Shown here: positions 22,541 through 33,807 of the stretch, one piece after another | Layout of the letters: each line of letters opens with the position of its first letter | How positions within the stretch are numbered: the stretch's first letter is position 1 | Source: Chloroflexota bacterium | GTDB taxonomy: Bacteria; Chloroflexota; Dehalococcoidia; Dehalococcoidales; RBG-16-60-22 | Length of the DNA: 34,015 nt | NCBI GenBank assembly: GCA_022574315.1 | Contig: JACZSH010000002.1 | Coordinates: 1 to 34,015 of the forward strand | Direction: 5' to 3' | Notes under the pieces: model-generated | Told to the model about the DNA's origin: nothing | What the model saw: only the letters and a program-made list of their open reading frames with translations | The model's database searches: none | Made by a program: the position numbers and the translations under genes

Positions 22541-23401
22541 TTAGCTTTTCAATTCGGCGTAGATTTCGGTAGCTCTAAACGAGCTTCTTACCAGCGGTGC
22601 CGAGGCGACGCCTCTGAACCCCATGTTTTTACCCGCTTCCCGGTAGTCGGCGAACTCCTCAGGAGAAACGAACTTCACCACCGGGTGGTGCTTTGCCGAG
22701 GGCTGCAGGTACTGGCCGATGGTCAGCAGGTCGCATCCGGCGGCCCTCAGGTCGCGCATCACCTCTCGCACCTCCTCTCCGGTTTCCCCCAGCCCCAGCA
22801 TCAACCCCGACTTGGTCACGATTTCCGGGTCGAACTCTTTCACTTTTGACAGCAGTGCCAGGGAACGTCGGTAGTTTGCCTCCGGTCTTACCTCCGGGTA
22901 AAGGCGGGGCACCGTTTCGATGTTATGGTTGATGACTTCGGGGCGGGCTTTCACCACCGTCTCCAGCGCTTCCGCCGAGCCGAGGAAGTCCGGTATGAGC
23001 ACCTCGACGATGACACCCGGGCGGTTGTCATGCAATAGCCGGATTGTCCGGGCGAAATGCCCGGCGCCGCCGTCAGGCAGGTCATCCCTGGTCACCGAAG
23101 TGATGACCACGTAGCTTAGTCCCAGTCTGGCTACTGCTTCCAGCAGGTGTTGCGGTTCCTCTTCGTCCGGCAGGTCAGGGCATCCCTTGGGTACCGCGCA
23201 GAACGTGCAGTGCCGACTGCACACCTCGCCCAGGATGAGGAAAGTTGCCGTGCCCGCCGTGAAACACCCGCCGATGTTCGGGCAGTGGGCGCTCTCGCAG
23301 ATGGTGCCCAGCTTTAATCCGTCGAGCAGGTGTGCCATATTGGACATAATCTGCGGGTCGGCCGATGGTTGCTTAAACCAGGGTGGCAGTCTTCCGCTCA
23401 T
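22541..23401 (-). CDS. lipA: Lipoyl synthase (radical SAM)
   Basis: 286 aa. Auxiliary cluster CESAHCPNIGGC (C-x4-C-x5-C), radical-SAM CSRHCTFC, C-terminal RSSF motif. 29-nt overlap with lipB. Confidence 0.95.
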   Translation of the reverse strand: MSGRLPPWFKQPSADPQIMSNMAHLLDGLKLGTICESAHCPNIGGCFTAGTATFLILGEVCSRHCTFCAVPKGCPDLPDEEEPQHLLEAVARLGLSYVVITSVTRDDLPDGGAGHFARTIRLLHDNRPGVIVEVLIPDFLGSAEALETVVKARPEVINHNIETVPRLYPEVRPEANYRRSLALLSKVKEFDPEIVTKSGLMLGLGETGEEVREVMRDLRAAGCDLLTIGQYLQPSAKHHPVVKFVSPEEFADYREAGKNMGFRGVASAPLVRSSFRATEIYAELKS

Positions 23402-24107
23402 CGCCTTCCTTTATCGGTATATTTGTTTTCGGGATTATCTCTATTTGAAATATTTCGGCAAAATGGGCCAGCAGTCTTTCGGTCACCGTTTCCAGGGCTA
23501 CCTCCCGTCCCAATCGGCGGGAGATAGAGGTTGCCGTCCGGTCGGCAAAGCCACAGGGATAAATCAGCGAAAAATACTCCAGGTCCGTGTTTACGTTGAG
23601 GGCAAACCCGTGCATCGTTACCCACTTCTTCAGCCGGAGTCCGATGGCGGCGATTTCCTGGTTACCCACCCAGACACCGGGGTGGTTTTTATCCCTGCCC
23701 GACTCGATAGCAAAGTCCTTTAATGTTCTGATGATTACTTCTTCGAGGTTGTGGATATAGCGGTGGATGTCTTTTCCCCACCCCCGCAGGTCGAATATCG
23801 GGTAGCCTACCAGCTGCCCCGGGCCGTGATAGGTCACATCCCCGCCCCGGTCGATAAAGACCAGTGAAACCCCTTTTTGGGCTAACTCTTCCGGTGAGGC
23901 CAGGATATTTTCCAGCTTACCGGACTTGCCCACCGTTATCGTCGGCGGATGTTCCAGCAGCAGCAGCGTATCCGGTATCCGGCCGTCCAATCTCTCTTCG
24001 AGCAGTTGTCTCTGCAGGCGGTAGGCAGCCTGGTAACTGATTTGCCCCGGCTGGTAGACGGCGCACCCTCTCCTGTTCCCTTCACTCGCCCGGCTCAAAG
24101 GTTTCAT
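23373..24107 (-). CDS. lipB: Octanoyltransferase (lipoyl(octanoyl) transferase)
   Basis: 244 aa. LLLEHPPTITVGKSG, DRGGDVTYHGPGQLVGYPI, KKWVTMHGFALNV, and IYPCG (catalytic Cys). ATGA overlap with the E3 gene. Confidence 0.92.
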   Translation of the reverse strand: MKPLSRASEGNRRGCAVYQPGQISYQAAYRLQRQLLEERLDGRIPDTLLLLEHPPTITVGKSGKLENILASPEELAQKGVSLVFIDRGGDVTYHGPGQLVGYPIFDLRGWGKDIHRYIHNLEEVIIRTLKDFAIESGRDKNHPGVWVGNQEIAAIGLRLKKWVTMHGFALNVNTDLEYFSLIYPCGFADRTATSISRRLGREVALETVTERLLAHFAEIFQIEIIPKTNIPIKEGDERKTATLV

Positions 24108-25510
24108 CTCTTTGACGGCAGGAAATGTATCGTTTCGCCGCTCACGTCCAGCGCCGCCTCTCGGAATGCCTCGGAAAGGCTGGGGTGGGAATGTATCGTG
24201 GCGATGATTTCCTGCGGCGTCACGTCCAGTTTCATCGCCAGGGTGGCTTCGGCAATTAGTTCCGTGGCTTGCGGACCGACGATGTGGACGCCGAGTATCT
24301 GGCCGTATTTCTGGTCGGTGACTATCTTTACCAGTCCCCGCCGCTCTCCTTTGATGATGGCCATGCCGTTGGCGGCGAAGGGAAATTTCCCTATCTGCAC
24401 CTGGTATTCCTGGGCTCTGGCGTCCGCCTCGGTGAGCCCCACGCCGGCCAGTTCCGGCAGGGTGAAAACGCAGCGCGGCACTACCTGGTAATCGATTGTC
24501 GTATCTTTGCCCAGGACGTTCTCCGCGGCCACGACCCCTTCTTCCATGGCGACGTAGGCCAGCATCATGCCGCCGACCGCGTCGCCGGCGGCGTAGATAT
24601 CGGGCACACTGGTGGCCATGCTTTCGTTTACTTTGATGGCGCCTTTCTCTACGGCTACTCCGGCTTCTTCCAGCCCCAGCCCGTCCAGGTTGGGGCGGTA
24701 GCCCACCCCGATGGCGACCACCTCCGCCACCAGTGTCTTCTCACCCTCGCCGGTAACCACGGTGACCGCTTTGCCCCCCGCCGCATCTTCGATAGCGCTC
24801 ACTTTGGCGCTCTCATATATTTCCACTCCGTCCTCTTTCAGGGCTTTACTCACCACCGCGGTTACTTCCACGTCTTCCAGGGGCAGGATGTGGGGTAGCA
24901 TTTCCACTATGGTCACTTTGCTGCCCAGCTTGGCCAGGATGGTGGCCATCTCCACGCCGATAACCCCGCCCCCGATCATCAGCAGGCTCTCCGGGACCCG
25001 TTCCAGGTCGAGCACGTCTTCCGCGCTGATTACGCCGCGGGGACTGTCCGCCCCCGGAATCGGCAGTGTTATCGGCCGGGCGCCGGTGGCGATGATTATC
25101 TTCTGTGCCTGAAGGACCTGTTTTTGCCCCTGCCCGTCGGTTATCTCCACCTGCATTGACGGCAGCAGCCGGGCGCGTCCGTTGATAACTTCGACCCCGT
25201 TTCCCTTCAGCAGGCCCTGGACGCCGGATACCAGCGTCGAGATAACCGTGCTCTTGCGCGCCATCATTTTGGCCAGGTCGATACTGACCCCGGTGGTGGT
25301 TATGCCGTATTGCCCGGCGTTCTTGATTGACTCGTAGAGCTCCACGCTGTGCAGCAGCGATTTCGAAGGGATGCACCCGTGATTCAAGCAGGTCCCTCCC
25401 AGCCTGTCCTCTTCGATGAGGGTAACCTTGCCTCCCAGCCGGGCGGCCCTTATCGCGGCGACGTATCCTGCCGGACCGCCGCCGATGATGATCAGTTCTC
25501 GTGTCTCCAC
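24104..25510 (-). CDS. lpdA: Dihydrolipoyl dehydrogenase (E3)
   Basis: 468 aa. FAD site IIGGGPAGYVAA, redox disulfide GGTCLNHGCIPSK, C-terminal HSHPSLSEAF His-Glu dyad. GTG start (cac 25508-25510) after AGGGAGG. Confidence 0.95.
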   Translation of the reverse strand: METRELIIIGGGPAGYVAAIRAARLGGKVTLIEEDRLGGTCLNHGCIPSKSLLHSVELYESIKNAGQYGITTTGVSIDLAKMMARKSTVISTLVSGVQGLLKGNGVEVINGRARLLPSMQVEITDGQGQKQVLQAQKIIIATGARPITLPIPGADSPRGVISAEDVLDLERVPESLLMIGGGVIGVEMATILAKLGSKVTIVEMLPHILPLEDVEVTAVVSKALKEDGVEIYESAKVSAIEDAAGGKAVTVVTGEGEKTLVAEVVAIGVGYRPNLDGLGLEEAGVAVEKGAIKVNESMATSVPDIYAAGDAVGGMMLAYVAMEEGVVAAENVLGKDTTIDYQVVPRCVFTLPELAGVGLTEADARAQEYQVQIGKFPFAANGMAIIKGERRGLVKIVTDQKYGQILGVHIVGPQATELIAEATLAMKLDVTPQEIIATIHSHPSLSEAFREAALDVSGETIHFLPSKR

Positions 25511-25524
25511 GGTGTACCTCCCTG

Positions 25525-26763
25525 TTACGCGCTGATTAGCAACCGGTATGGGTTTTCCAGCAGCTTGATGACGCCGGCCATGAACCCGGCGGCCACCGCG
25601 CCGTCGATTACTCTGTGGTCATAGGTAAAATAGTAGGTCATTATCGGACGGATGACGATTTGCCCCTCCCTGACCACCGCCCGGTCGGTGATGGCGCCGG
25701 TGCCCAGGATGGCCGACTCCGGCTGGTTGATGATTACCGTCTCGAAGCGGTATCCGGCGCCGACGGCGCCCAGATTGCTCAGGGTGAAGGTGCCGCCGCT
25801 GATATCGTCCGGCTGCAGTTTCCCCTCTCTCGCCCTGGAAGCCAGCGCCTTTACTGTCTGGCTGATTTCTTTCAGTGATTTCCGGTCGGCGGCGGCGACT
25901 ACCGGGACAATCAGCCCCTCGTCCAGGGCGACGGCCACGCCGATATTGATGTCTTCCCAGATTTTCACTTCATTATCTATCAGGCTGGCGTTGATTGCCG
26001 GGTGCTCTTTGAGCGCCCGGGCGACGGCTATCACCAGTAAATCGGTGTAGGTAATGCGGGTGCCGAAGGTGCTTTCCTGCTCCACCAGGTCCTGACGCAG
26101 CTTGACCAGCTGGGTCATGTCTATCTCGCCCATGGCGGTGAGCTGGGCGGAGGTGGCCAGGCTGCGGTGCATGTGCTCGGCAATGGCCCCCCGCATCCCC
26201 CTGAGGGGTACCGTGCTCTTTACTCTCTTTTCACCGGGGGCGCCTGCCGGGGCGGCCGCCTCTTTGGGCCCCGCCGCTTTATCGGCAATCGCTTTTTCAA
26301 TGTCTTCCCGGATAATCCGGCCTCCGGGTCCCGTGCCGGTTACCTGCGTCACGTCGATGACGTGCTCCTCGGCCATCTTCCGGGCGACCGGTGATATTTT
26401 GACTCTTTCTCCCCTTCCGCCCGCGCTTACCGGTGGGGCGGCGGCTGCCTGGGGGGCGGCCTCGGCCTCGGCGGCCGGTGCCGGTTCAGGCTCCGGTTGG
26501 GCGGTTTGCAGGGCGGCCAGTTCTTCTTTCGATTCGGCAATCACGCCAATCGCCGAGCTAACCGCGGCCGTCTCGTCGGCATTTTTTACGATGTGGACAA
26601 AGCCGGCGGCCGGTGACTCCACGTCATACCTCAGCTTTTCCGTTTCAATCACCACCACCACCTGCTTTTCCTTTACCTGCTCTCCTTCCTGGACCTTCCA
26701 CTCAATGATGGTAGCGTCGGCTACCGCCATGCCTAAACGTGGTACCGTAATATCAGTTGCCAT
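25525..26763 (-). CDS. Dihydrolipoamide acyltransferase (E2), AcoC/PdhC-like
   Basis: 412 aa. Single lipoyl domain (VVVIETEKLRYDVESPAAG). Ala/Pro linker. Subunit-binding domain ISPVARKMAEEHVIDVTQVTGTGPGGRIIREDI. Catalytic DHRVIDGA. Confidence 0.93.
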   Translation of the reverse strand: MATDITVPRLGMAVADATIIEWKVQEGEQVKEKQVVVVIETEKLRYDVESPAAGFVHIVKNADETAAVSSAIGVIAESKEELAALQTAQPEPEPAPAAEAEAAPQAAAAPPVSAGGRGERVKISPVARKMAEEHVIDVTQVTGTGPGGRIIREDIEKAIADKAAGPKEAAAPAGAPGEKRVKSTVPLRGMRGAIAEHMHRSLATSAQLTAMGEIDMTQLVKLRQDLVEQESTFGTRITYTDLLVIAVARALKEHPAINASLIDNEVKIWEDINIGVAVALDEGLIVPVVAAADRKSLKEISQTVKALASRAREGKLQPDDISGGTFTLSNLGAVGAGYRFETVIINQPESAILGTGAITDRAVVREGQIVIRPIMTYYFTYDHRVIDGAVAAGFMAGVIKLLENPYRLLISA

Positions 26764-26778
26764 CTTTTCCTCCTGAGG

Positions 26779-27768
26779 CTAGTTTCTAAAAAATCCTTGG
26801 CTCACGGCCGCCCGGATAGTCCCTTCGATGTCAACCACGCGGGGGCCGTCTCCTTGCAGTCTTATCTGTACCTGGTCGGCGGCGGCTACCGTAATCTCTC
26901 TCTCTCCGTCCAGCGCGATTACCGATGGCTTGCAGAGTACCGTTACCTCTTCTCCGGGTTCCAGTATCTTCATTTCGGCTACCTCCACCTCGGCCACCCG
27001 CCCCGGGAGTACCACCGCCCTTACTTTTATATCGCCGCTTCCCAGCCTGATGTACATACCGTGCTGGTCACCGGGTCCCACCGGGTGCAGGTTGCCCCCG
27101 ATACAGGTCATCCCGATGTTATTCGGCTCAGCCCGGGTGCAGACAATCTGCCTGACCTCGGTCAGCTTCCAGATGGCCCGTGAGCCGGTGAATAGCTGGT
27201 CTAGAACTACGGCATCCACCAGTGCCATGTCGATTTCGGCACCGTTCTTGATGACCACCAGTCTTTTATGGCGGCTGATGGGCTCCTCCCCGTCCAGGAC
27301 ATTCCGGCAGATAATTCCGGCGGCGATTCCCGCCGAGGTGGATTCGGTCATCACCGGGAAGACGTTGTTGGTGCCGGTGGATATCGGCACCAGGGGTATG
27401 TCCTGCTTTCCCTTGGCCACGTCCCGGTTGGTCCCGTCTCCGCCCAGGGTGACGATGCAGCCCACCCCCCGTTCGCCCATCATCTCGGCGGCCTTGAGGC
27501 TGTCTTTGGCCGTGTAGTCCATAACCATGTCCAGTATGGAGACTTTTGCCTTGATATTCTCCGTCAGCATCCCGCCCAGGGCTCTCTGCCCGAGGCTGTA
27601 ATAGTCCGGCATGATAAGTATCTCGTCGACGCCGGTGGAATCGATGCCGATGATTATCCTTCTCATCAGGTTGGTTTTCTCGGTATTATCGGTCACGCTG
27701 GCATAAGCTACCAGCCGTCTGATGTCTTTTCCGGAGGCGGGATTGGCGATAATCCCCACTATGCTCAC
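26779..27768 (-). CDS. AcoX-like protein of the ATP-NAD kinase / diacylglycerol-kinase fold (function unknown)
   Basis: 329 aa. N-terminal GIIANPASGKD and the TLGGDGT motif are typical of NAD-kinase-fold proteins. Located in an aco-type operon, like acoX of acoXABC clusters. GTG start directly abuts the upstream stop (TAAGTG). Confidence 0.6.
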   Translation of the reverse strand: MSIVGIIANPASGKDIRRLVAYASVTDNTEKTNLMRRIIIGIDSTGVDEILIMPDYYSLGQRALGGMLTENIKAKVSILDMVMDYTAKDSLKAAEMMGERGVGCIVTLGGDGTNRDVAKGKQDIPLVPISTGTNNVFPVMTESTSAGIAAGIICRNVLDGEEPISRHKRLVVIKNGAEIDMALVDAVVLDQLFTGSRAIWKLTEVRQIVCTRAEPNNIGMTCIGGNLHPVGPGDQHGMYIRLGSGDIKVRAVVLPGRVAEVEVAEMKILEPGEEVTVLCKPSVIALDGEREITVAAADQVQIRLQGDGPRVVDIEGTIRAAVSQGFFRN

Positions 27769-28755
27769 TTAATCCACCCTGTCTAACTCGTGGCAGTTAA
27801 CGCAGTTGGGCATCGGCTCGCCTTTCAGGCCGGCAATCAGGTTCTCCGCCCCCATAATGCTCATCTCCGTCCCCGTTTGCCAGGTCTGGGCGCCGATGTG
27901 GGGAGTGATAATCAGATTGTCCAGGGTCAGCAGCGGGTCGCCTTTTGAGATTGGTTCTTCTCTGGTGACGTCTATCGCCGCACCCCGTATCCGTTTATGT
28001 TTCAGGGCTTCGTACAGTGCTGCCTGGTCGACCACTTTCCCCCGGGCGGTGTTAACCAGTACCGCCGTCGGTTTCATGCCGGCCAGTTCTTTGGCGCCGA
28101 TGAGGTGTTGTGTATCCGCCGTCAGCGGCACGTGGATGCTCACAAAGTCGGACCGGCTGAGCAGGGTTGGTATGTCCTCGACGTATTCCGCGCCCAGTTC
28201 GGCTTCATCCGCTCTCCGGTTGCGGTTGTGGTAAAGTATCTTCATTTCAAAACCACGGGCACGCCTGGCCACGGCGGCGCCGATGCGCCCCATCCCGATA
28301 ATGCCCAGCGTCTTGTGGTGGACGTCGAGGCCGGTCATTTCCATCGGTCCCCACATCTTCCATTCCCCCCGCGCCGTCAGGTCGACCATTTCCACTATCC
28401 TCCGGGCAAAGGTAAGCATGATGGTAAAAGCCAGGTCGGCGGTGCTTTCGGTGACCGCCCCCGGTGTATTGCTGACCTTGATACCCCGCCTGGTCGCCGC
28501 TTCGGTGTCGATGTTGTCGTAGCCCACGCTGACATTGGCAATCACTTTGAGTTTCGGTGCCGCCTCCATGACGCCGCCGTCTATTTCATCGGCACCCCAG
28601 AGCAGTAACCCGTCCGCGTCGGCCAGGTGGTGGATAAGCTCGGCGCGGGGGATGGTATCCTCTATCGGCCATACCTCGTAATCGGCGTATTGCGCAACTA
28701 TGTCAAGTGCTTCTTGCGCCATCGCTCTGGTGATATATACTTTTGGCTTCGGCAT
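27769..28755 (-). CDS. D-isomer-specific 2-hydroxyacid dehydrogenase (glyoxylate/hydroxypyruvate reductase-like)
   Basis: 328 aa. NAD site LGIIGMGRIGAAVARRA. Catalytic context VNTARG ... IDVTREEP ... ITPHIG (Arg/Glu/His triad). Confidence 0.88.
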   Translation of the reverse strand: MPKPKVYITRAMAQEALDIVAQYADYEVWPIEDTIPRAELIHHLADADGLLLWGADEIDGGVMEAAPKLKVIANVSVGYDNIDTEAATRRGIKVSNTPGAVTESTADLAFTIMLTFARRIVEMVDLTARGEWKMWGPMEMTGLDVHHKTLGIIGMGRIGAAVARRARGFEMKILYHNRNRRADEAELGAEYVEDIPTLLSRSDFVSIHVPLTADTQHLIGAKELAGMKPTAVLVNTARGKVVDQAALYEALKHKRIRGAAIDVTREEPISKGDPLLTLDNLIITPHIGAQTWQTGTEMSIMGAENLIAGLKGEPMPNCVNCHELDRVD

Positions 28756-28800
28756 TTGATATCTCCGGTAATTAGTGTCTTTGTGAAATGTCGTCTATGG

Positions 28801-29370
28801 CTACCGGCCGGTAAAATACACGTTTTTCCCCGATGCCGATAGCGGGATGCCGATTGCCAGGTCGGCGTCCATCAGTTTCATCCTGCGGGCGGCGGCACCT
28901 ATCGAGTACATCATGCGGTTGTCCACGTTAAAGTCGCTGGCCGTTTTCACCGCCGAAGCCAGGGCGATGCCCAGGTCCATCGACTGGAAATGGCACATCG
29001 GGCCGCTGGCGTCACCGGCGTCTATCTTTTTCGCCTTCAGTATTGTCAGGCAGTTATGACCGCAGGCGCCGCAGTCGAGAGGTATCTCCACCTTTTTGGG
29101 CTCGCCGGTAACGCCGATAATCAGTACCGCCGCTGACTTCCGGACGTCGTCGGCGTTCCTCTTGAAAAAAGCCAGCCTCTTCGGGTCGTCCTCATATCTT
29201 TTTTCCATGGCCTGGGCCAGCGCTTCCAGTTCTTCGGTGCCGTGTAAAATAAGCGTCTTTGTCGAGTCCATCCCCCTCGTCTTGGGGGAGGTGCGGCTAC
29301 TCACTGCCATCAACCGGGCGGCATCCAGTATCCCTTCTCTTTCTGCCTCATCCGAGCTTATTCGTGCCAT
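28801..29370 (-). CDS. DUF2148-type ferredoxin-domain protein (uncharacterised, COG4739-like)
   Basis: 189 aa. SSRTSPKTRGMDS near the N-terminus, a Cys cluster DCGACGHNC plus a distal Cys (GPMCHF), then DLGIALASAVKTASDFNVDNRMMYSIG. This matches my recollection of the DUF2148 family. SD GGAAGGAGA. Confidence 0.6.
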   Translation of the reverse strand: MARISSDEAEREGILDAARLMAVSSRTSPKTRGMDSTKTLILHGTEELEALAQAMEKRYEDDPKRLAFFKRNADDVRKSAAVLIIGVTGEPKKVEIPLDCGACGHNCLTILKAKKIDAGDASGPMCHFQSMDLGIALASAVKTASDFNVDNRMMYSIGAAARRMKLMDADLAIGIPLSASGKNVYFTGR

Positions 29371-29424: not shown

Positions 29425-30403
29425 TTAACCGGTTATCTCGTCTATGGCCGCGATTAGCTGGTTTTCGTCGGGCATCCAGTAGTCCTCCATGATTACACCG
29501 TAGGGGACCGGAGTGTCGGGCGCGTTGACCCTCTTTATCGGCGCATCCAGGTAGTCGAAAGCCTCATCCGCGCAGATGGCGGCCACATGCCCGGCGAAGC
29601 TCCCCGTCTCGCATTCCTCGGTGAAGATTACCAGCCGGCTGGTCTTCTTGACCGAGTCCAGGATGGTCTTCTTATCAAGGGGCACTATCGTCCGCGGGTC
29701 GATTACCTCCAGGCTGAGACCGCGTTCTTTTTGCAGTTTCTCGGCGACATTCAGCGCCTTACTTACCATGTAAGCGGTCGCCACCACGGTGATATCGGTG
29801 CCTTCCCGCTTGATTTCAGCCTCTCCGAAAGGTATGGTGTAATCCCCGTCCGGCACCATGCCTTTCGGGCTGGTCCACATCAGCATCTTGTGCTCGAAAA
29901 ACATCACCGGGTTATCGTCCCGGATGGCCGTTTTCAGCAGACCCTTGGCATCGTAGGGATTTGAAGGCAGGACGATTTTCAGCCCCGGCATGCACATCAT
30001 CATCCCCTCCAGGCTCTGGGAGTGCTGGGCGGCTGTCCGCCGGCCGGCGCCGCTGAGTGCCGTCATCACCAGGGGCACGGATATCTTGCCCCCGAACATA
30101 TAGCGCATCTTGGTCATCCCGTTCATTATCTCGTCCCAGGCTACTCCCAGGAAGTCACAGAACCTCATCTGCGGGATGGGCCTCATTCCGGTTATGGCCG
30201 AGCCGATAGCGGCTCCCAGGATGGCTGCCTCGGAGAGTGGCGTGTCCCGTACCCGGCGGGTACTTCTCGTACAGGCCCCCGATTTCCCCCATCAATCCGC
30301 CCATTACGCCCACGTCCTCTCCCAGTATGTACACCCTCTCGTCTCTCTCCATTTCCTCGTCCATCGCCTCGCCAATCGCCTGGCGAAAGTTTATCTCTCT
30401 CAT
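29425..30403 (-). pseudogene. 2-oxoacid/acetoin dehydrogenase E1 beta subunit (AcoB/PdhB-like) with interrupted reading frame
   Basis: Track ORFs 30155..30403 (82 aa) and 29425..30186 (253 aa) are the two halves of one E1-beta. MREINFRQAIGEAMDEEMERDERVYILGEDVG..GGLYEKY is read in one frame. RVRDTPLSEAAILGAAIGSAITGMRPIPQMRFCDF.. continues in the next frame with no start codon. The span is 979 nt (3n+1). The switch lies between the Tyr codon at 30260-30262 and the Arg codon at 30253-30255. Confidence 0.85.
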
Positions 30404-30412
30404 TTTCCCCTC

Positions 30413-31372
30413 CTAGGCATATACGTTGTCCAACGTTTCTTCCGGTCTCGGGAAAGGACTTTCCAGGGCGAACTTCACCGCTTCGTCCATTTCCGCCAGC
30501 GCTGCCTCGTCAATCTCTTTGGCTTTCTCTTCGGTCAGCACCTTCATTTCCAGGAGCTTTTCCTGGAAGAGTTTTATCGGGTCCCGTTTTAGCCAGGCGT
30601 CAATTTCCTCCTGGGGTCGGTAGGTGCCGGCATCTCCTTCGAAGTGGCCGTGGTAGCGGTAGGTTTTGGCCTCGATTAAAGTCGGTCCCCCGCCGTTCCT
30701 GGCTCTGGCCACCGCCTCCCCCATCACCTCGTGTACCGCCATCACGTCCTGTCCGTCCACCACCACCCCGGGAATTCCGTAGCCCGCCGCCCGGTCGGCA
30801 ATGTCGTGTATCGCCAGCGAGCAGCTCGTCGGCACCGATACCGCCCACAGGTTGTTTTCACAGATGAAAATTACCGGCAGACACCAGACCGCCGCCAGGT
30901 TGATGCCTTCGTGGAATCGCCCGATGTTGGAGGCGCCGTCGCCGAAGAAGCAGGCGGTTACCTGGTCGGTGCCTCTCATTACTGCGGAAAGGCCGGCCCC
31001 GGTGGCCACCGGTATCCCTGACCCCACGATACCCGCCGCTCCCAGCATGCCGATGTCCAGGTCGGCGATGTGCATTGAGCCGCCCTTGCCCAGGCAGTAG
31101 CCGGTTTTTTTAGCGAAAAGCTCGGCCATGGCCCGTTTCGGGTCACCGCCCTTGGCAAGCAGGTGCCCGTGTCCGCGGTGGTTACTGACGATGTAGTCTT
31201 CCGTCCTCAGATGCGCCAGCGCCCCCGAAGCGATTGCCTCTTCGCCAATGTAGACGTGGACGCTGCCGGGAATGTTTCCCGCCTTGAACTCACTGGAAAC
31301 TCTTTCTTCGAAACGGCGGATACGGACCATGGTGCGGAACATGCTGAGTAACTTCTCTTTTTCTATTGCCAT
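30413..31372 (-). CDS. TPP-dependent 2-oxoacid/acetoin dehydrogenase E1 alpha subunit (AcoA-like)
   Basis: 319 aa. YIGEEAIASGA, SNHRGHGHLLAKGGD, and the TPP motif GDGASNIGRFHEGINLAAVWCLPVIFICENN. Confidence 0.92.
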   Translation of the reverse strand: MAIEKEKLLSMFRTMVRIRRFEERVSSEFKAGNIPGSVHVYIGEEAIASGALAHLRTEDYIVSNHRGHGHLLAKGGDPKRAMAELFAKKTGYCLGKGGSMHIADLDIGMLGAAGIVGSGIPVATGAGLSAVMRGTDQVTACFFGDGASNIGRFHEGINLAAVWCLPVIFICENNLWAVSVPTSCSLAIHDIADRAAGYGIPGVVVDGQDVMAVHEVMGEAVARARNGGGPTLIEAKTYRYHGHFEGDAGTYRPQEEIDAWLKRDPIKLFQEKLLEMKVLTEEKAKEIDEAALAEMDEAVKFALESPFPRPEETLDNVYA

Positions 31373-31461: not shown

Positions 31462-31884
31462 TTATGCTGACTTTTTGGCCAGGTCTTCAAGCATGATATC
31501 GGCGGCTTCTCTGGCTGACATCCCTTCTCTAATTCCCAGTTTTTTCGCCAGTTCATTGGTTGCCGATAGGCTACCCTGCTCGTAGGTGCTGGTGCCGTTG
31601 CCTATTTTGGCCGACATGGTGGACACGGCCACCGCCGGGATATCATACTTGTCCAGCGCTTTCATGCCGGCGATTCCGGCCTCATTCTTGCCGATACCGG
31701 CGTCATTGCTGACCATCCCTTTTATCTTCATATTACCCAGGTGCTCGCAGGCATTGACACCACCGTGCGAACCGGTGATGATGATATCCATATTGTTGCT
31801 TTGGTCAACCTCGGAACTGGTGTCCACGATTACGATTCGGGCCTTGCCCATTTCTTTGACGACTTTCCGTTTGTCTCCTGACAT
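31462..31884 (-). CDS. Uncharacterised small protein, paralogue A of a tandem pair
   Basis: 140 aa from ATG 31884 (SD GAGGTG, 7-nt spacer). With this start its N-terminus aligns residue-for-residue with paralogue B. The track's TTG start at 31932 adds 16 unaligned residues. Motifs: RIVIVD, TGSHGGVN, KGMVSNDAGIGKNEAGIAG, IPAVAVS, AKIGNG, KLGIREGMSAREAAD. Confidence 0.75.
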   Translation of the reverse strand: MSGDKRKVVKEMGKARIVIVDTSSEVDQSNNMDIIITGSHGGVNACEHLGNMKIKGMVSNDAGIGKNEAGIAGMKALDKYDIPAVAVSTMSAKIGNGTSTYEQGSLSATNELAKKLGIREGMSAREAADIMLEDLAKKSA

Positions 31885-31928
31885 CTGCTCGTCACCTCTT
31901 TCTGAATCTGCGCCGGTGCCTTTTTTGC

Positions 31929-32336
31929 TCAACTGTTCTCAAACATTCGGTCGGCCGCTTCCCTGGCCGGCATCCCTTCCCTGATTCCCAGTTTCCGGGC
32001 TGCCTCGTTGGCTACCGAGATTACGCCGCTGTAATAGGTGTCCACCCCGACGCCGATTTCAGCCGACAGGCGGGATACCGCCGCCGCCGGGATACCGTGT
32101 TCGTCCATCAGTTTCAGGGCGGCGATTCCGGCGTCCTCAAGCCCTCCGCCGGCGTCATTGCCAATCATTCCTTTTACCCCGGCGGCAATCATCATCTGCC
32201 CCACGTTGATGCCGCAGTGGGAAGCGTCCACCACCACGTCATTCTTGTTTTCTCCGGTCAGTGACGTCGCCGAATCGGCAATGATTATCCGGGACTTTTC
32301 TGATTCTCTGACTATTTTGTGTATCTCGTGAATCAA
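31929..32336 (-). CDS. Uncharacterised small protein, paralogue B of a tandem pair
   Basis: 135 aa. TTG start (32334-32336) 5 nt after AAAGGGGGGA. Motifs: RIIIAD, DASHCGIN, KGMIGNDAGGGLEDAGIAA, IPAAAVS, AEIGVG, KLGIREGMPAREAAD. Confidence 0.75.
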   Translation of the reverse strand: MIHEIHKIVRESEKSRIIIADSATSLTGENKNDVVVDASHCGINVGQMMIAAGVKGMIGNDAGGGLEDAGIAALKLMDEHGIPAAAVSRLSAEIGVGVDTYYSGVISVANEAARKLGIREGMPAREAADRMFENS

Positions 32337-32452
32337 GGCTGTCCCCCCTTTAACGTAATTATTAAACGTAATTTTATTATACTACTTTATTGGCGTGGCG
32401 GGATAACCGGAAAATTGCTGGAACCAGGCTGCCTACGCTCCATGGCCGACTC

Positions 32453-32500
32453 AAAAATAAGGGAAGTGAACCACGGATTTCAACCGTCATGTTCACTTCC
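32453..32500 (-). terminator. Intrinsic-terminator-like hairpin in the spacer upstream of the accessory operon
   Basis: Minus strand reads GGAAGTGAAC (32491-32500), a 19-nt loop, GTTCACTTCC (32462-32471), then CTTATTTTTGA. The 10-bp stem is perfect and the loop can add an inner ACGG/CCGT stem. Confidence 0.55.
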
Positions 32501-32691: not shown

Positions 32692-33762
32692 TTAAATGAA
32701 ACAGAGCATTCTTTTCGGGTTCTCCACGGTGATGGTATTGACCTGTTCCTCGGTTAAACCGGCGTCAACCAGCAAAGGCATGACGTACCGGGAAATGTGG
32801 TCGTAGCCGACTCCACCGTAGCGGGCACGCTGGTACTTGTGGCAGACATCGTGAGAGATTAGAATCTGGTCCAGGTACCCCTCGGCAATCAACGCCCGGA
32901 TTTCTTCCGCCCGCCCGCTGTCGCTGGGGATGCTGATGAAGGTACCTTTATACAGGTTTGCCGGCGCCGGTCCGGACCACCCGAAGCAGTCGTATTCGAG
33001 GTAGCAGCCGGCTTTAGCCACCTGGCAGCGCACCTTGTGGTCGCGTACGCGGATGTCGATATGGCTGATGACGGTACGGCTCAGGTCGGCGTCGGCGTTG
33101 CTCAGAATCTCCAGTATTTCCAGCACCGCTTCGTTATTCCGGCGTCCCGGGTGTATGTTTAACGGCGCGCCGGTCAGCCGTTGCGCCCGGGCGGCGGCCT
33201 GCATCGCCTTTTTTTCGTTGTCCACCAGCGGCCAGGAGCAGCCTATCTCACCGATGATTCCCGCCCGTATCCCGCTCTCGCCGACGCCGGTATTGACATC
33301 GCGCACGATTTCTTCGGTTATTTCCTCTTCTGACCTGGCGGCCATGTCCGCCGGGTGCGAGGTGGCCAGATAGTGCCCTGACCCCATGATAATGTTCAGC
33401 CCCGTGGCTCTGGAGACGCGCACCAGCGCTTCCGGGTTGCGGTGGATACCGATATTGGTGACATCGACGATTGTCCCCCCGCCCGCCTTTTTGAAGTTCA
33501 TGGCTTCGTCGATAGCTTCCGGCTCGTCCAGCAGTTCCAAGTTGTCCACGTTCTGGGAACGGTGATAGCTCAGCCAGTGCAGCAGTTCCAGGCTGACCGG
33601 CTGGTGCGCTTTTACCCGGTCATTTTCATCCTCTGGCTCGTTGTAGTTGGCCGTGGCGTGTTCCATGATGAGGTGCTCGTGGGGTAGTGTGACTCCCAGT
33701 TCTTGGCCCTCAATCGGCCCCAGTACGGTCATTGCTTTTCCGGCGAACTTTGAAACAGGCAT
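32692..33762 (-). CDS. Phosphotriesterase-family (PTE/PHP, amidohydrolase superfamily) hydrolase, possibly a lactonase
   Basis: About 356 aa. The GVTLPHEHLIMEH H-x-H metal motif sits near the N-terminus and the later blocks (GCSW, IHPG, ISHID, ISHDVCHK) are typical of the PTE family. ATG 33760-33762 is preceded by AAAGGAGGG at 9 nt. The track start 33789 would place this SD inside the coding sequence. Confidence 0.85.
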   Translation of the reverse strand: MPVSKFAGKAMTVLGPIEGQELGVTLPHEHLIMEHATANYNEPEDENDRVKAHQPVSLELLHWLSYHRSQNVDNLELLDEPEAIDEAMNFKKAGGGTIVDVTNIGIHRNPEALVRVSRATGLNIIMGSGHYLATSHPADMAARSEEEITEEIVRDVNTGVGESGIRAGIIGEIGCSWPLVDNEKKAMQAAARAQRLTGAPLNIHPGRRNNEAVLEILEILSNADADLSRTVISHIDIRVRDHKVRCQVAKAGCYLEYDCFGWSGPAPANLYKGTFISIPSDSGRAEEIRALIAEGYLDQILISHDVCHKYQRARYGGVGYDHISRYVMPLLVDAGLTEEQVNTITVENPKRMLCFI

Positions 33763-33807
33763 CTTCTGTGACCCTCCTTTTCCGGACATCGTCCGGCGGT
33801 AACTTGA

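Follow-up and report, generated by a model that had tools for sequence, protein, structure and literature searches.

A paired or fused double-domain protein family, distantly related to DUF1805/YunC, encoded beside thiamine diphosphate enzymes in Dehalococcoidia and other bacteria

Several described systems resemble, in one respect or another, the gene pair reported here. Isomerases of the DapF/PrpF type and of the Asp/Glu-racemase type consist of two homologous domains that arose by duplication. Thiamine diphosphate (ThDP)-dependent enzymes are among the best-studied metabolic enzymes, and to our knowledge no conserved partner made of two paralogous halves has been described for them. The described tetronate route proceeds from a dehydrogenase to the isomerase OtnI, then to a kinase and finally to a decarboxylase (PMC12994016), and an acetoin racemase was postulated decades ago and has never been confirmed (PMC4709696). 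The subject of this report is a pair of adjacent genes, termed A and B, in a 34,015-nucleotide stretch of DNA from a Chloroflexota bacterium (Dehalococcoidia; contig JACZSH010000002.1), which is referred to as the window. The pair is situated at the head of an operon for an E1/E2/E3 dehydrogenase complex and encodes two diverged paralogous proteins; A·B denotes the two products taken together. The family to which they belong already sits in databases under the label 'hypothetical protein'; new here are its definition as a family of double-domain proteins, either paired or fused, and the recognition that its genes systematically accompany those of ThDP enzymes, short-chain dehydrogenases/reductases (SDRs) and TRAP transporters.

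Like LacA/LacB of the RpiB fold, A and B are adjacent, diverged paralogues of ~140 amino acids (aa), presumably heteromeric and encoded in a catabolic operon. They differ from LacA/LacB in that the RpiB signatures are absent, no Pfam or NCBIfam match to RpiB/LacAB was obtained at E up to 1, and no PDB sequence or fold match was found; an earlier note on this DNA, made from the sequence, had already set this relationship aside. With BudA/AlsD and IlvN/IlvH the family shares the position of a small protein encoded beside an acetolactate synthase (ALS)-type ThDP enzyme. In contrast to these, it also occurs with E1α-β or without any ThDP enzyme, and Pfam reported neither the ALS small subunit (ACT) nor the α-acetolactate decarboxylase family for A, B or ten fused relatives. 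A function similar to either is possible despite the failed membership. The likeness to DapF/PrpF-type and Asp/Glu-racemase-type isomerases is one of architecture only, namely duplicated domains with the same candidate catalytic residues; there is no sequence or fold similarity, and the candidates are Ser-His and Asn-Asp rather than the Cys of those enzymes. As for OtnI and the acid-sugar ketol isomerases, the family could fill the same pathway position in clusters with TRAP transporters, dehydrogenases, a DUF1537 kinase and a decarboxylase or RuBisCO-like protein. No sequence or fold relationship to OtnI was detected, and the functional equivalence is hypothetical.

Gene A (31929..32336, minus strand) is an open reading frame (ORF) for a 135-aa half-protein. 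It is the first cistron, starts with TTG and is preceded, 6 nt upstream, by a Shine-Dalgarno sequence GGGGGG at 32348-32343. Gene B (31462..31884, minus strand) encodes the paralogous half-protein of 140 aa. The ORF of B spans 31462..31932, and an extension to a TTG at 31932 is possible; the ATG at 31884 is the likelier start and is supported by the orthologue P0137 (140 aa), which starts at the same Met. With this start the A-B spacer (31885..31928, minus strand) is 44 nt long and, as read from the sequence, holds the ribosome-binding site of B, AGAGGTGA. The end of B is separated from the start of the E1α gene by 89 nt. BLASTP aligns A and B without gaps at 62 of 129 identical positions (48%, E 5e-42), so that their paralogy is far above chance. 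The earlier note had described adjacent paralogous ORFs, 44 nt apart and 45-50% identical by eye, and had listed shared motif blocks; the spacing and the identity agree with the present values, and all of the blocks are found in the A/B alignment. Orthologues of A in metagenome-assembled genomes (MAGs) of Dehalococcoidia are 57-95% identical to it.

The split pair is a minority form of its family. A profile search across 1.84 billion representatives gave 1219 relatives at E<=1e-3, with E values as low as 1e-102 for the double-domain family, and the architecture was judged on the best 150. Two copies per chain are present in 148 of these 150, the chains being ~265-300 aa long. The suspicion that A and B form a heteromeric unit is thus strengthened, as nearly all of the 150 best relatives hold both halves in one polypeptide. 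Direct reading of two alphaproteobacterial genomes, one of them from Rhizobiaceae, showed fused genes (termed AB), and P0121 is a fused protein closely related to A and B. A word-based search with one fused query returned more than 5500 clusters at 90% identity, all named 'hypothetical protein', and the same name is carried by family members on RefSeq plasmids of Rhizobium, Aminobacter, Rhodococcus, Ponticoccus, Methylovirgula and several haloarchaea. Rarer fusions join the double-domain module to E1α or to a carboxymuconolactone-decarboxylase (CMD)/AhpD-like domain; two representatives, P0156 and P0257, bear the latter C-terminally to the double domain. We also note that a separate CMD/AhpD-family gene occurs near the double-domain gene in a Rhizobiaceae locus (L020, 4057-4563) and a few kb from it in an alphaproteobacterial locus (L111, 2320-2718).

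A simple correspondence of A to the N half and of B to the C half of the fused proteins was considered and rejected, as half-specific hidden Markov models do not separate A from B. A and B are 47-55% identical to each other, and either is 34-38% identical to the N or the C half of the main fused family. As the resemblance between A and B exceeds that of either to the fused halves, the two-copy architecture appears to have been kept or re-created repeatedly, and the two-copy state may have had more than one origin or round of homogenisation.

Both halves of the fused proteins, as well as A and B, hold the motifs D-S, G-S-H-G-G, N-D-A-G-x-G-x-x-x-A-G, S-A-x-I-G-x-G (S-A-R-I-G-D-G in the fused proteins) and G-x-I-S-x-x-N-x-x-A-x-x-L-G-x-x-x-G-M. 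A and B thereby carry all motifs that define the double DUF1805-like family. Ser39, His40, Gly42, Asn60/Asp61, Ala62, Gly63, Gly65 and Asn110, among others, vary little or not at all across A, B and the two halves of each of 100 diverse fused proteins, with the C half of the fused proteins somewhat stricter in conservation than the N half. The AlphaFold2 model of A (pLDDT 90.2) has an N-terminal β-hairpin followed by alternating β and α elements, and the model of a natural A-B fusion (pLDDT 93.3, pTM 0.78) is disordered in the linker alone. The conserved residues come after the strands at residues 16-20, 34-40 and 56-60 of the A model. Each half is an α/β domain, and the invariant polar residues (D-S, S-H, N-D) together with Gly-rich loops at the C-terminal ends of consecutive β-strands suggest a small-molecule site at the position that is canonical for α/β folds.

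The nearest named family is DUF1805/YunC (PF08827, COG3377). PF08827 matches the C-terminal ~55 residues of A, of B and of both fused halves with E values of 1e-5 to 6e-7. The scores for A (residues 76-131, 25.7 bits) and B (residues 74-129, 25.4 bits) are below the gathering threshold of 29.5 bits; scores of about 28-30 bits occur in a few of the fused proteins. A precomputed PF08827 match or the JGI name 'YunC (DUF1805 family)' is attached to many relatives. With Foldseek, the A model gives a partial match to the DUF1805 protein TA1206 (1qw2) over 59 columns (2.0 Å, probability 0.98, E 0.053; TM 0.34 by the query and 0.44 by the target), and the fused model matches the same structure with a probability of 0.75 across 58 columns. 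The likeness consists of the C-terminal profile match, together with a putative fold resemblance to 1qw2. In contrast to DUF1805, which is a single domain of ~100 aa, A and B are 135-140 aa long, always occur in two copies, paired or fused, and possess an additional N-terminal β-hairpin and β-α-β region that bears the D-S, S-H and N-D motifs. The family is best described as a remote, enlarged relative of DUF1805 with partial membership. No functional study of DUF1805, YunC, PF08827, COG3377, IPR014931 or TA1206 was found in the literature searched; as DUF1805 has no known function, the relationship gives no mechanism for A and B.

Other searches gave no characterised family. Neither model has a full-length match in the PDB; Foldseek against the PDB gave no match at E<=1e-3 for the A model or the fused model, and PDB sequence searches, with a single sequence or a profile, gave nothing below E 0.4. 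Foldseek matches to D-lactate dehydrogenases, racemases and nucleosidases had probabilities of at most 0.47 with poor rmsd or coverage and were discarded. The NCBIfam scan of A and B gave nothing meaningful, and among all Pfam and NCBIfam results for A, B and ten fused relatives there is no characterised family that would account for the pair. A match to the Y-family DNA polymerase domain (IMS, PF00817) is confined to a stretch of ~30 residues, xVSxxNxxARxLGVxxGM, and is regarded as a local structural motif; it scores 18-22 bits in A and B and up to 31 bits in one fused relative against a cut-off of 23.2, and no stretch in the fused relatives passes the cut-off by itself. Membership among the E1/E2/E3/E3BP components was likewise rejected, as lipoyl, PSBD, E1_dh, transketolase and pyridine-nucleotide-disulfide domains were not found in A or B. 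The links of A and B to the dehydrogenase complex consist of the neighbouring genes and one natural E1α fusion. The earlier description of the proteins as an unrecognised family holds in that profile and PDB searches yield no above-threshold family of known function, and requires amendment in view of the sub-threshold DUF1805/YunC similarity and the partial TA1206 match.

The neighbourhood of the pair was examined in Dehalococcoidia by scanning GTDB species genomes, which gave 22 loci. The A/B tandem is present in every locus where the contig permits a view, and in each of the 12 loci whose sequence continues for at least 4.5 kb on that side, E1α/E1β lie downstream of it. Two arrangements are observed. 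Type I, that of the window, has the order phosphotriesterase-family gene (PTE), A, B, E1α, E1β, DUF2148, (2-hydroxyacid dehydrogenase, 2-HADH), AcoX, E2, E3, Lpl, LipA. Type II, which is without E2/E3, has PCC/DUF296, DctPQM, A, B, Zn-dependent alcohol dehydrogenase (Zn-ADH), three SDRs, E1α, E1β, a split transketolase and a HIBADH-like gene; genes for an HpcH aldolase and a 2-HADH lie divergently upstream. The split transketolase (N and C subunits) of type II follows E1α/E1β directly in L023 (16994-18848) and L025 (16927-18758), which places two transketolase-superfamily ThDP systems side by side after the Zn-ADH and the three SDR genes. The PCC/DUF296 protein recurs near the family: in Dehalococcoidia it is encoded at 4303-4725 in L007 and at 6285-6707 in L023, directly upstream of DctPQM-A-B, and elsewhere at 2135-2992 in L112 (Rhizobium leguminosarum pRLG203). 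It may belong to the same pathway as the A/B family.

The fused form was followed in a metagenome scan with 37 query sequences that have TGSHGGL in common, a sample biased to one subfamily; the bias was countered by clustering and by sampling other lineages. Among the 80 metagenomic loci obtained, a ThDP enzyme (E1α-β and/or ALS-like) is encoded within 3 kb in 59; 3 have at least 1.5 kb on both sides without one, and the flanks of the remaining 18 are too short to judge. Fifty-nine of the 62 evaluable loci are therefore linked to a ThDP enzyme gene, mostly by direct adjacency, and ThDP genes number 2.04 per 10 kb up to a distance of 3 kb and 0.25 per 10 kb beyond. Clustering at 60% identity reduces the 80 loci to 15 groups, 8 of them ThDP-linked. 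The gene found most often immediately downstream encodes an acetolactate-synthase/pyruvate-oxidase-type ThDP enzyme of ~585 aa, which scores under every NCBIfam equivalog cut-off. AB is directly upstream of this ALS-like gene in 50 of the 80 loci, with gaps of 6-110 nt, and with gaps of 10 nt in an operon of the order E1α-E1β-AB-ALS-like. The pattern recurs in independent lineages: the E1α-E1β-AB-ALS-like operon lies on a 440-kb contig, and a family member at <=50% identity retains the arrangement E1β-AB-ALS-like. We also note this operon in soil Alphaproteobacteria (Stellaceae-like; L111, 6895-11565, and L076, 7991-12550) as a compact set of four genes that includes two different ThDP enzymes and is without E2/E3.

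E1α-β adjoins AB in several phyla besides that of the Dehalococcoidia, and in an alphaproteobacterium AB is divergent from E1α-E1β-DctP-SDR. A 689-aa [AB]-E1α fusion followed by E1β is present on 4 contigs of one lineage. At one of these loci (L027, 8001-10070; also L028 and L029) genes for a class-III aminotransferase and an ABC transporter come after the fusion and E1β, E2/E3 are absent from the vicinity, and a separate fused E1α-β gene is located upstream on the opposite strand. Genes for TRAP transporters and SDR dehydrogenases also recur beside the family, and SDR/Zn-ADH genes flank it in many contexts.

Members without a ThDP enzyme within 7-10 kb lie in acyl-CoA, aromatic and acid-sugar clusters. 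In a Rhizobiaceae locus (L020) AB is found with TRAP genes, a MaoC-like hydratase, an acyl-CoA dehydrogenase and PrpD, and on R. leguminosarum pRLG203 with acyl-CoA genes, DUF296 and an SDR. The Rhodococcus locus contains AB, DUF35, a CoA ligase and a thiolase, whereas that of Aminobacter and a related metagenomic locus combine TAXI, a CoA-transferase, an HMGL-like lyase, an RraA-like protein, AB and a dienelactone hydrolase. Two further loci (L039 and L085) have AB with TRAP and SDR genes, and in haloarchaea AB is accompanied by TRAP, aldolase, SDR, VOC, RuBisCO-like protein and DUF1537 kinase genes. On two haloarchaeal plasmids (L113, 7493-11583, and L122, 6407-10527) the genes for VOC, AB, RuBisCO-like protein and DUF1537 four-carbon acid-sugar kinase are clustered with TRAP, SDR and aldolase genes nearby; these loci resemble an acid-sugar pathway variant, and none of their genes carries an isomerase annotation.

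A relative of the window, the Dehalococcoidales MAG locus L022, retains the pair only as a remnant (1975-2270), in which the first ~13 codons of A run out of frame onto the last ~50 codons of B. The PTE gene and the E1α-E1β-DUF2148-AcoX-E2-E3-Lpl-LipA operon are intact despite this deletion. Together with the members that have no ThDP enzyme, the L022 deletion speaks against A·B as a structural component that the complex must have. The earlier note had tied the pair to an Aco-type complex, which it was thought to feed or modify. Linkage to E1 is indeed recurrent, as seen in Dehalococcoidia, in other phyla and in the E1α fusion; however, the association is with ThDP enzymes generally, including ALS-like ones and usually without E2/E3, as well as with TRAP and SDR genes, and some members have no ThDP enzyme nearby. 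The role of a modifier of the complex is opposed by those members and by L022, which keeps the complex without the pair.

In the window, the region upstream of A (32343..32500, minus strand) contains several putative control elements on the minus strand. A hairpin with a 10-bp stem (32500-32491/32471-32462) and a T-run (32460-32453) lie between the PTE gene and A and are likely the terminator of the former. A TATAAT box is found at 32381-32376, and a direct repeat AATTACGTT, which could be an operator, at 32373-32365 and 32360-32352, shortly ahead of the ribosome-binding site of A. A consensus scan gave further promoter-like matches at 32639-32610 and 32483-32454. It is reasonable, on this arrangement, to regard A and B as the first cistrons behind a promoter-like element. 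The PTE gene itself (32692..33789, minus strand; lactonase-like, PF02126, E 1.7e-76) is probably on a separate transcript; it is present upstream of the pair also in L001, L002, L003 and L022.

The third cistron (30413..31372, minus strand) encodes E1α, the ThDP-binding subunit (PF00676, E 5.5e-90). It scores 363 bits against TIGR03182, under the cut-off of that model, and is 53% identical to the E1α of the alphaproteobacterial E1α-E1β-AB-ALS-like operons. E1β (29425..30403, minus strand), with transketolase-like domains, is interrupted and split into two ORFs, 30155-30403 and 29425-30186. The DNA alignment places a 2-nt deletion near 30257 in a CCCGGG context, the window reading TACCC--GCCGGG where L001 and L002 have TACCCGGGCCGGG; the loss is either an artefact of sequencing or assembly or a sign that the E1 complex has recently been pseudogenised. 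The remaining genes, assigned from Pfam or NCBIfam scans, follow on the minus strand: a DUF2148 ferredoxin-domain protein (28801-29370), a D-2-hydroxyacid dehydrogenase (27769-28755), an AcoX-like NAD-kinase-family protein (26779-27768), E2 (25525-26763), E3 (24104-25510), a lipoate ligase/transferase (23373-24107) and a radical-SAM protein, presumably LipA (22541-23401). The order of this part of the operon (22541..29370) is repeated in L001-L003, L005 and L022. The DUF2148 and AcoX-like proteins, which lie between E1β and E2, have no NCBIfam model and are both kept in these type-I relatives.

The description that is best supported is that of a pseudo-symmetric, two-lobed soluble protein with small-molecule sites that takes part in the catabolism of imported hydroxy- or oxo-acids and of diols or acyloins, next to dehydrogenase and ThDP steps. 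We infer that A and B are halves of one soluble protein and associate as a pseudo-symmetric heterodimer, which would be the split form of a two-domain family of ~270-290 aa with DUF1805/YunC as distant kin. The reading that we favour, while giving it appreciably less than an even chance, is that A·B is an independent catabolic enzyme, rather than a structural subunit, whose reaction is linked to ThDP steps. Its substrate would be a hydroxy-/oxo-carboxylate or an acyloin (α-hydroxyketone) intermediate, at a step between uptake by TRAP transporters and oxidation by SDR/ADH enzymes on the one hand and, on the other, the C-C cleavage or decarboxylation carried out by the ThDP enzyme; in the window, the ThDP partner would be the AcoX-linked E1/E2/E3 complex. 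The chemistry that we prefer is a proton transfer by way of the enediol(ate) of an α-hydroxy-carbonyl compound, either as ketol isomerisation (3-oxo-2-hydroxy to 2-oxo-3-hydroxy) or as racemisation of an acyloin such as acetoin, by which A·B would supply the isomer accepted by the ThDP enzyme. Such chemistry is preferred because it could serve two classes of ThDP enzyme, and SDR-rich diol/acyloin clusters and acid-sugar clusters alike; it would also cover the mechanistically related decarboxylation of α-hydroxy-β-keto acids. In its favour are the SDR/Zn-ADH genes that flank the family, among them the Zn-ADH and three SDRs between the pair and E1 in type II, and the haloarchaeal clusters with a DUF1537 kinase and a RuBisCO-like protein, where an annotated isomerase is missing for the step that OtnI performs in the tetronate route. 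This specific isomerase/racemase assignment is tentative and is held about half as firmly as the overall reading.

Several observations weigh against an independent catabolic enzyme. Nothing in the Pfam, NCBIfam, PDB profile and Foldseek results points to an isomerase or racemase already known, and the clustering of the conserved residues and their place relative to the A/B interface are deduced from secondary structure only. The contexts are chemically heterogeneous (CoA-ester, aromatic, sugar-acid) and might not all be served by one type of reaction. The proportion of 59 in 62 overstates the independent support, given 15 clusters of which 8 are ThDP-linked. Finally, the E1α fusion and the tight E1-AB-ALS operons would suit a physical subunit equally well. 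Such a non-catalytic accessory subunit, which would bind E1α-β and ALS-like enzymes in a regulatory, stabilising or assembly role likened to that of the small subunit of acetolactate synthase, would account for the [AB]-E1α fusion on 4 contigs and for the short gaps to ALS-like genes (6-110 nt, and 10 nt in the E1α-E1β-AB-ALS operons). The association with two structurally different ThDP classes would be explained by a shared cofactor-related function, and the several clusters with AB and E1α-β that do not have E2/E3 are compatible with it. Nevertheless, we regard this explanation as fairly unlikely: it is opposed by the members with no ThDP enzyme within 7-10 kb and by the intact E1/E2/E3 operon of L022 after deletion of the pair, Pfam gave no ACT or ALS small-subunit signature, and the invariant Ser-His and Asn-Asp at strand ends seem catalytic or ligand-binding and less like an interface.

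A·B may alternatively be a decarboxylase of β-keto or α-hydroxy-β-keto acids, a non-homologous analogue of α-acetolactate decarboxylase, that turns imported or oxidised carboxylates, or the ALS product, into neutral acyloins cleavable by an Aco-type E1. TRAP transporters usually import carboxylates and Aco-type E1 acts on neutral hydroxyketones, a gap that such an enzyme would bridge. The order AB then ALS-like mirrors budA-budB, in keeping with the budABC operon, where the decarboxylase precedes the synthase; CMD-family domains as fusions and neighbours, and RraA-like and HMGL-like lyases nearby, point in the same direction. The Pfam and NCBIfam scans gave no match to any decarboxylase family, however, no metal-binding His/Glu triad is apparent as conserved in the fused-family alignment, and many contexts have no obvious β-keto acid intermediate, which together leave this explanation improbable, more so than the accessory subunit. 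A cytoplasmic ligand-binding or sensor protein of the TRAP transporter, sequestering the substrate or modulating transport, is very improbable. The gene does lie immediately downstream of dctM in Dehalococcoidia, in Rhizobiaceae and in another lineage, and immediately upstream of dctPQM elsewhere, but the window operon and many other loci have no adjoining TRAP genes, no fusions to transporter or DNA-binding domains occur among the relatives examined, and the enzyme-type fusions (E1α, CMD) point elsewhere.

Returning to the independent catabolic enzyme, A·B is probably an ordinary member of catabolism rather than a new biological principle. A more far-reaching proposal, which we consider unlikely, is that A·B founds a new class of enzymes, with no full-length counterpart among solved structures, whose enediol chemistry prepares the substrates of ThDP enzymes that cleave or form C-C bonds, and which would include the long-sought acetoin (acyloin) racemase and a non-homologous replacement for ketol isomerases such as OtnI in acid-sugar catabolism. 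Bolder still is the variant in which A·B would dock on E1α-β and ALS-like enzymes as a new type of third subunit.

The family comprises thousands of sequence clusters and extends over bacteria and archaea, among them soil Alphaproteobacteria, Dehalococcoidia, Actinomycetota and haloarchaea, and its regular adjacency to ThDP enzymes implies a shared reaction. Cultured and genetically tractable carriers are available in Rhizobium leguminosarum WSM2304 (RLEG2_RS31475), Aminobacter aminovorans, Rhodococcus and haloarchaea; the Aminobacter gene is AA2016_RS30375 and that of Rhodococcus WAY2 is GFS60_RS32620, and WP_012559743 (R. leguminosarum) and WP_067968799 (Aminobacter) are fused homologues. 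Assigning the family would supply a step in the breakdown of acyloins, diols or acid sugars and improve the annotation of many TRAP-linked catabolic clusters, and a function for it would provide the first functional foothold for the DUF1805 superfamily.

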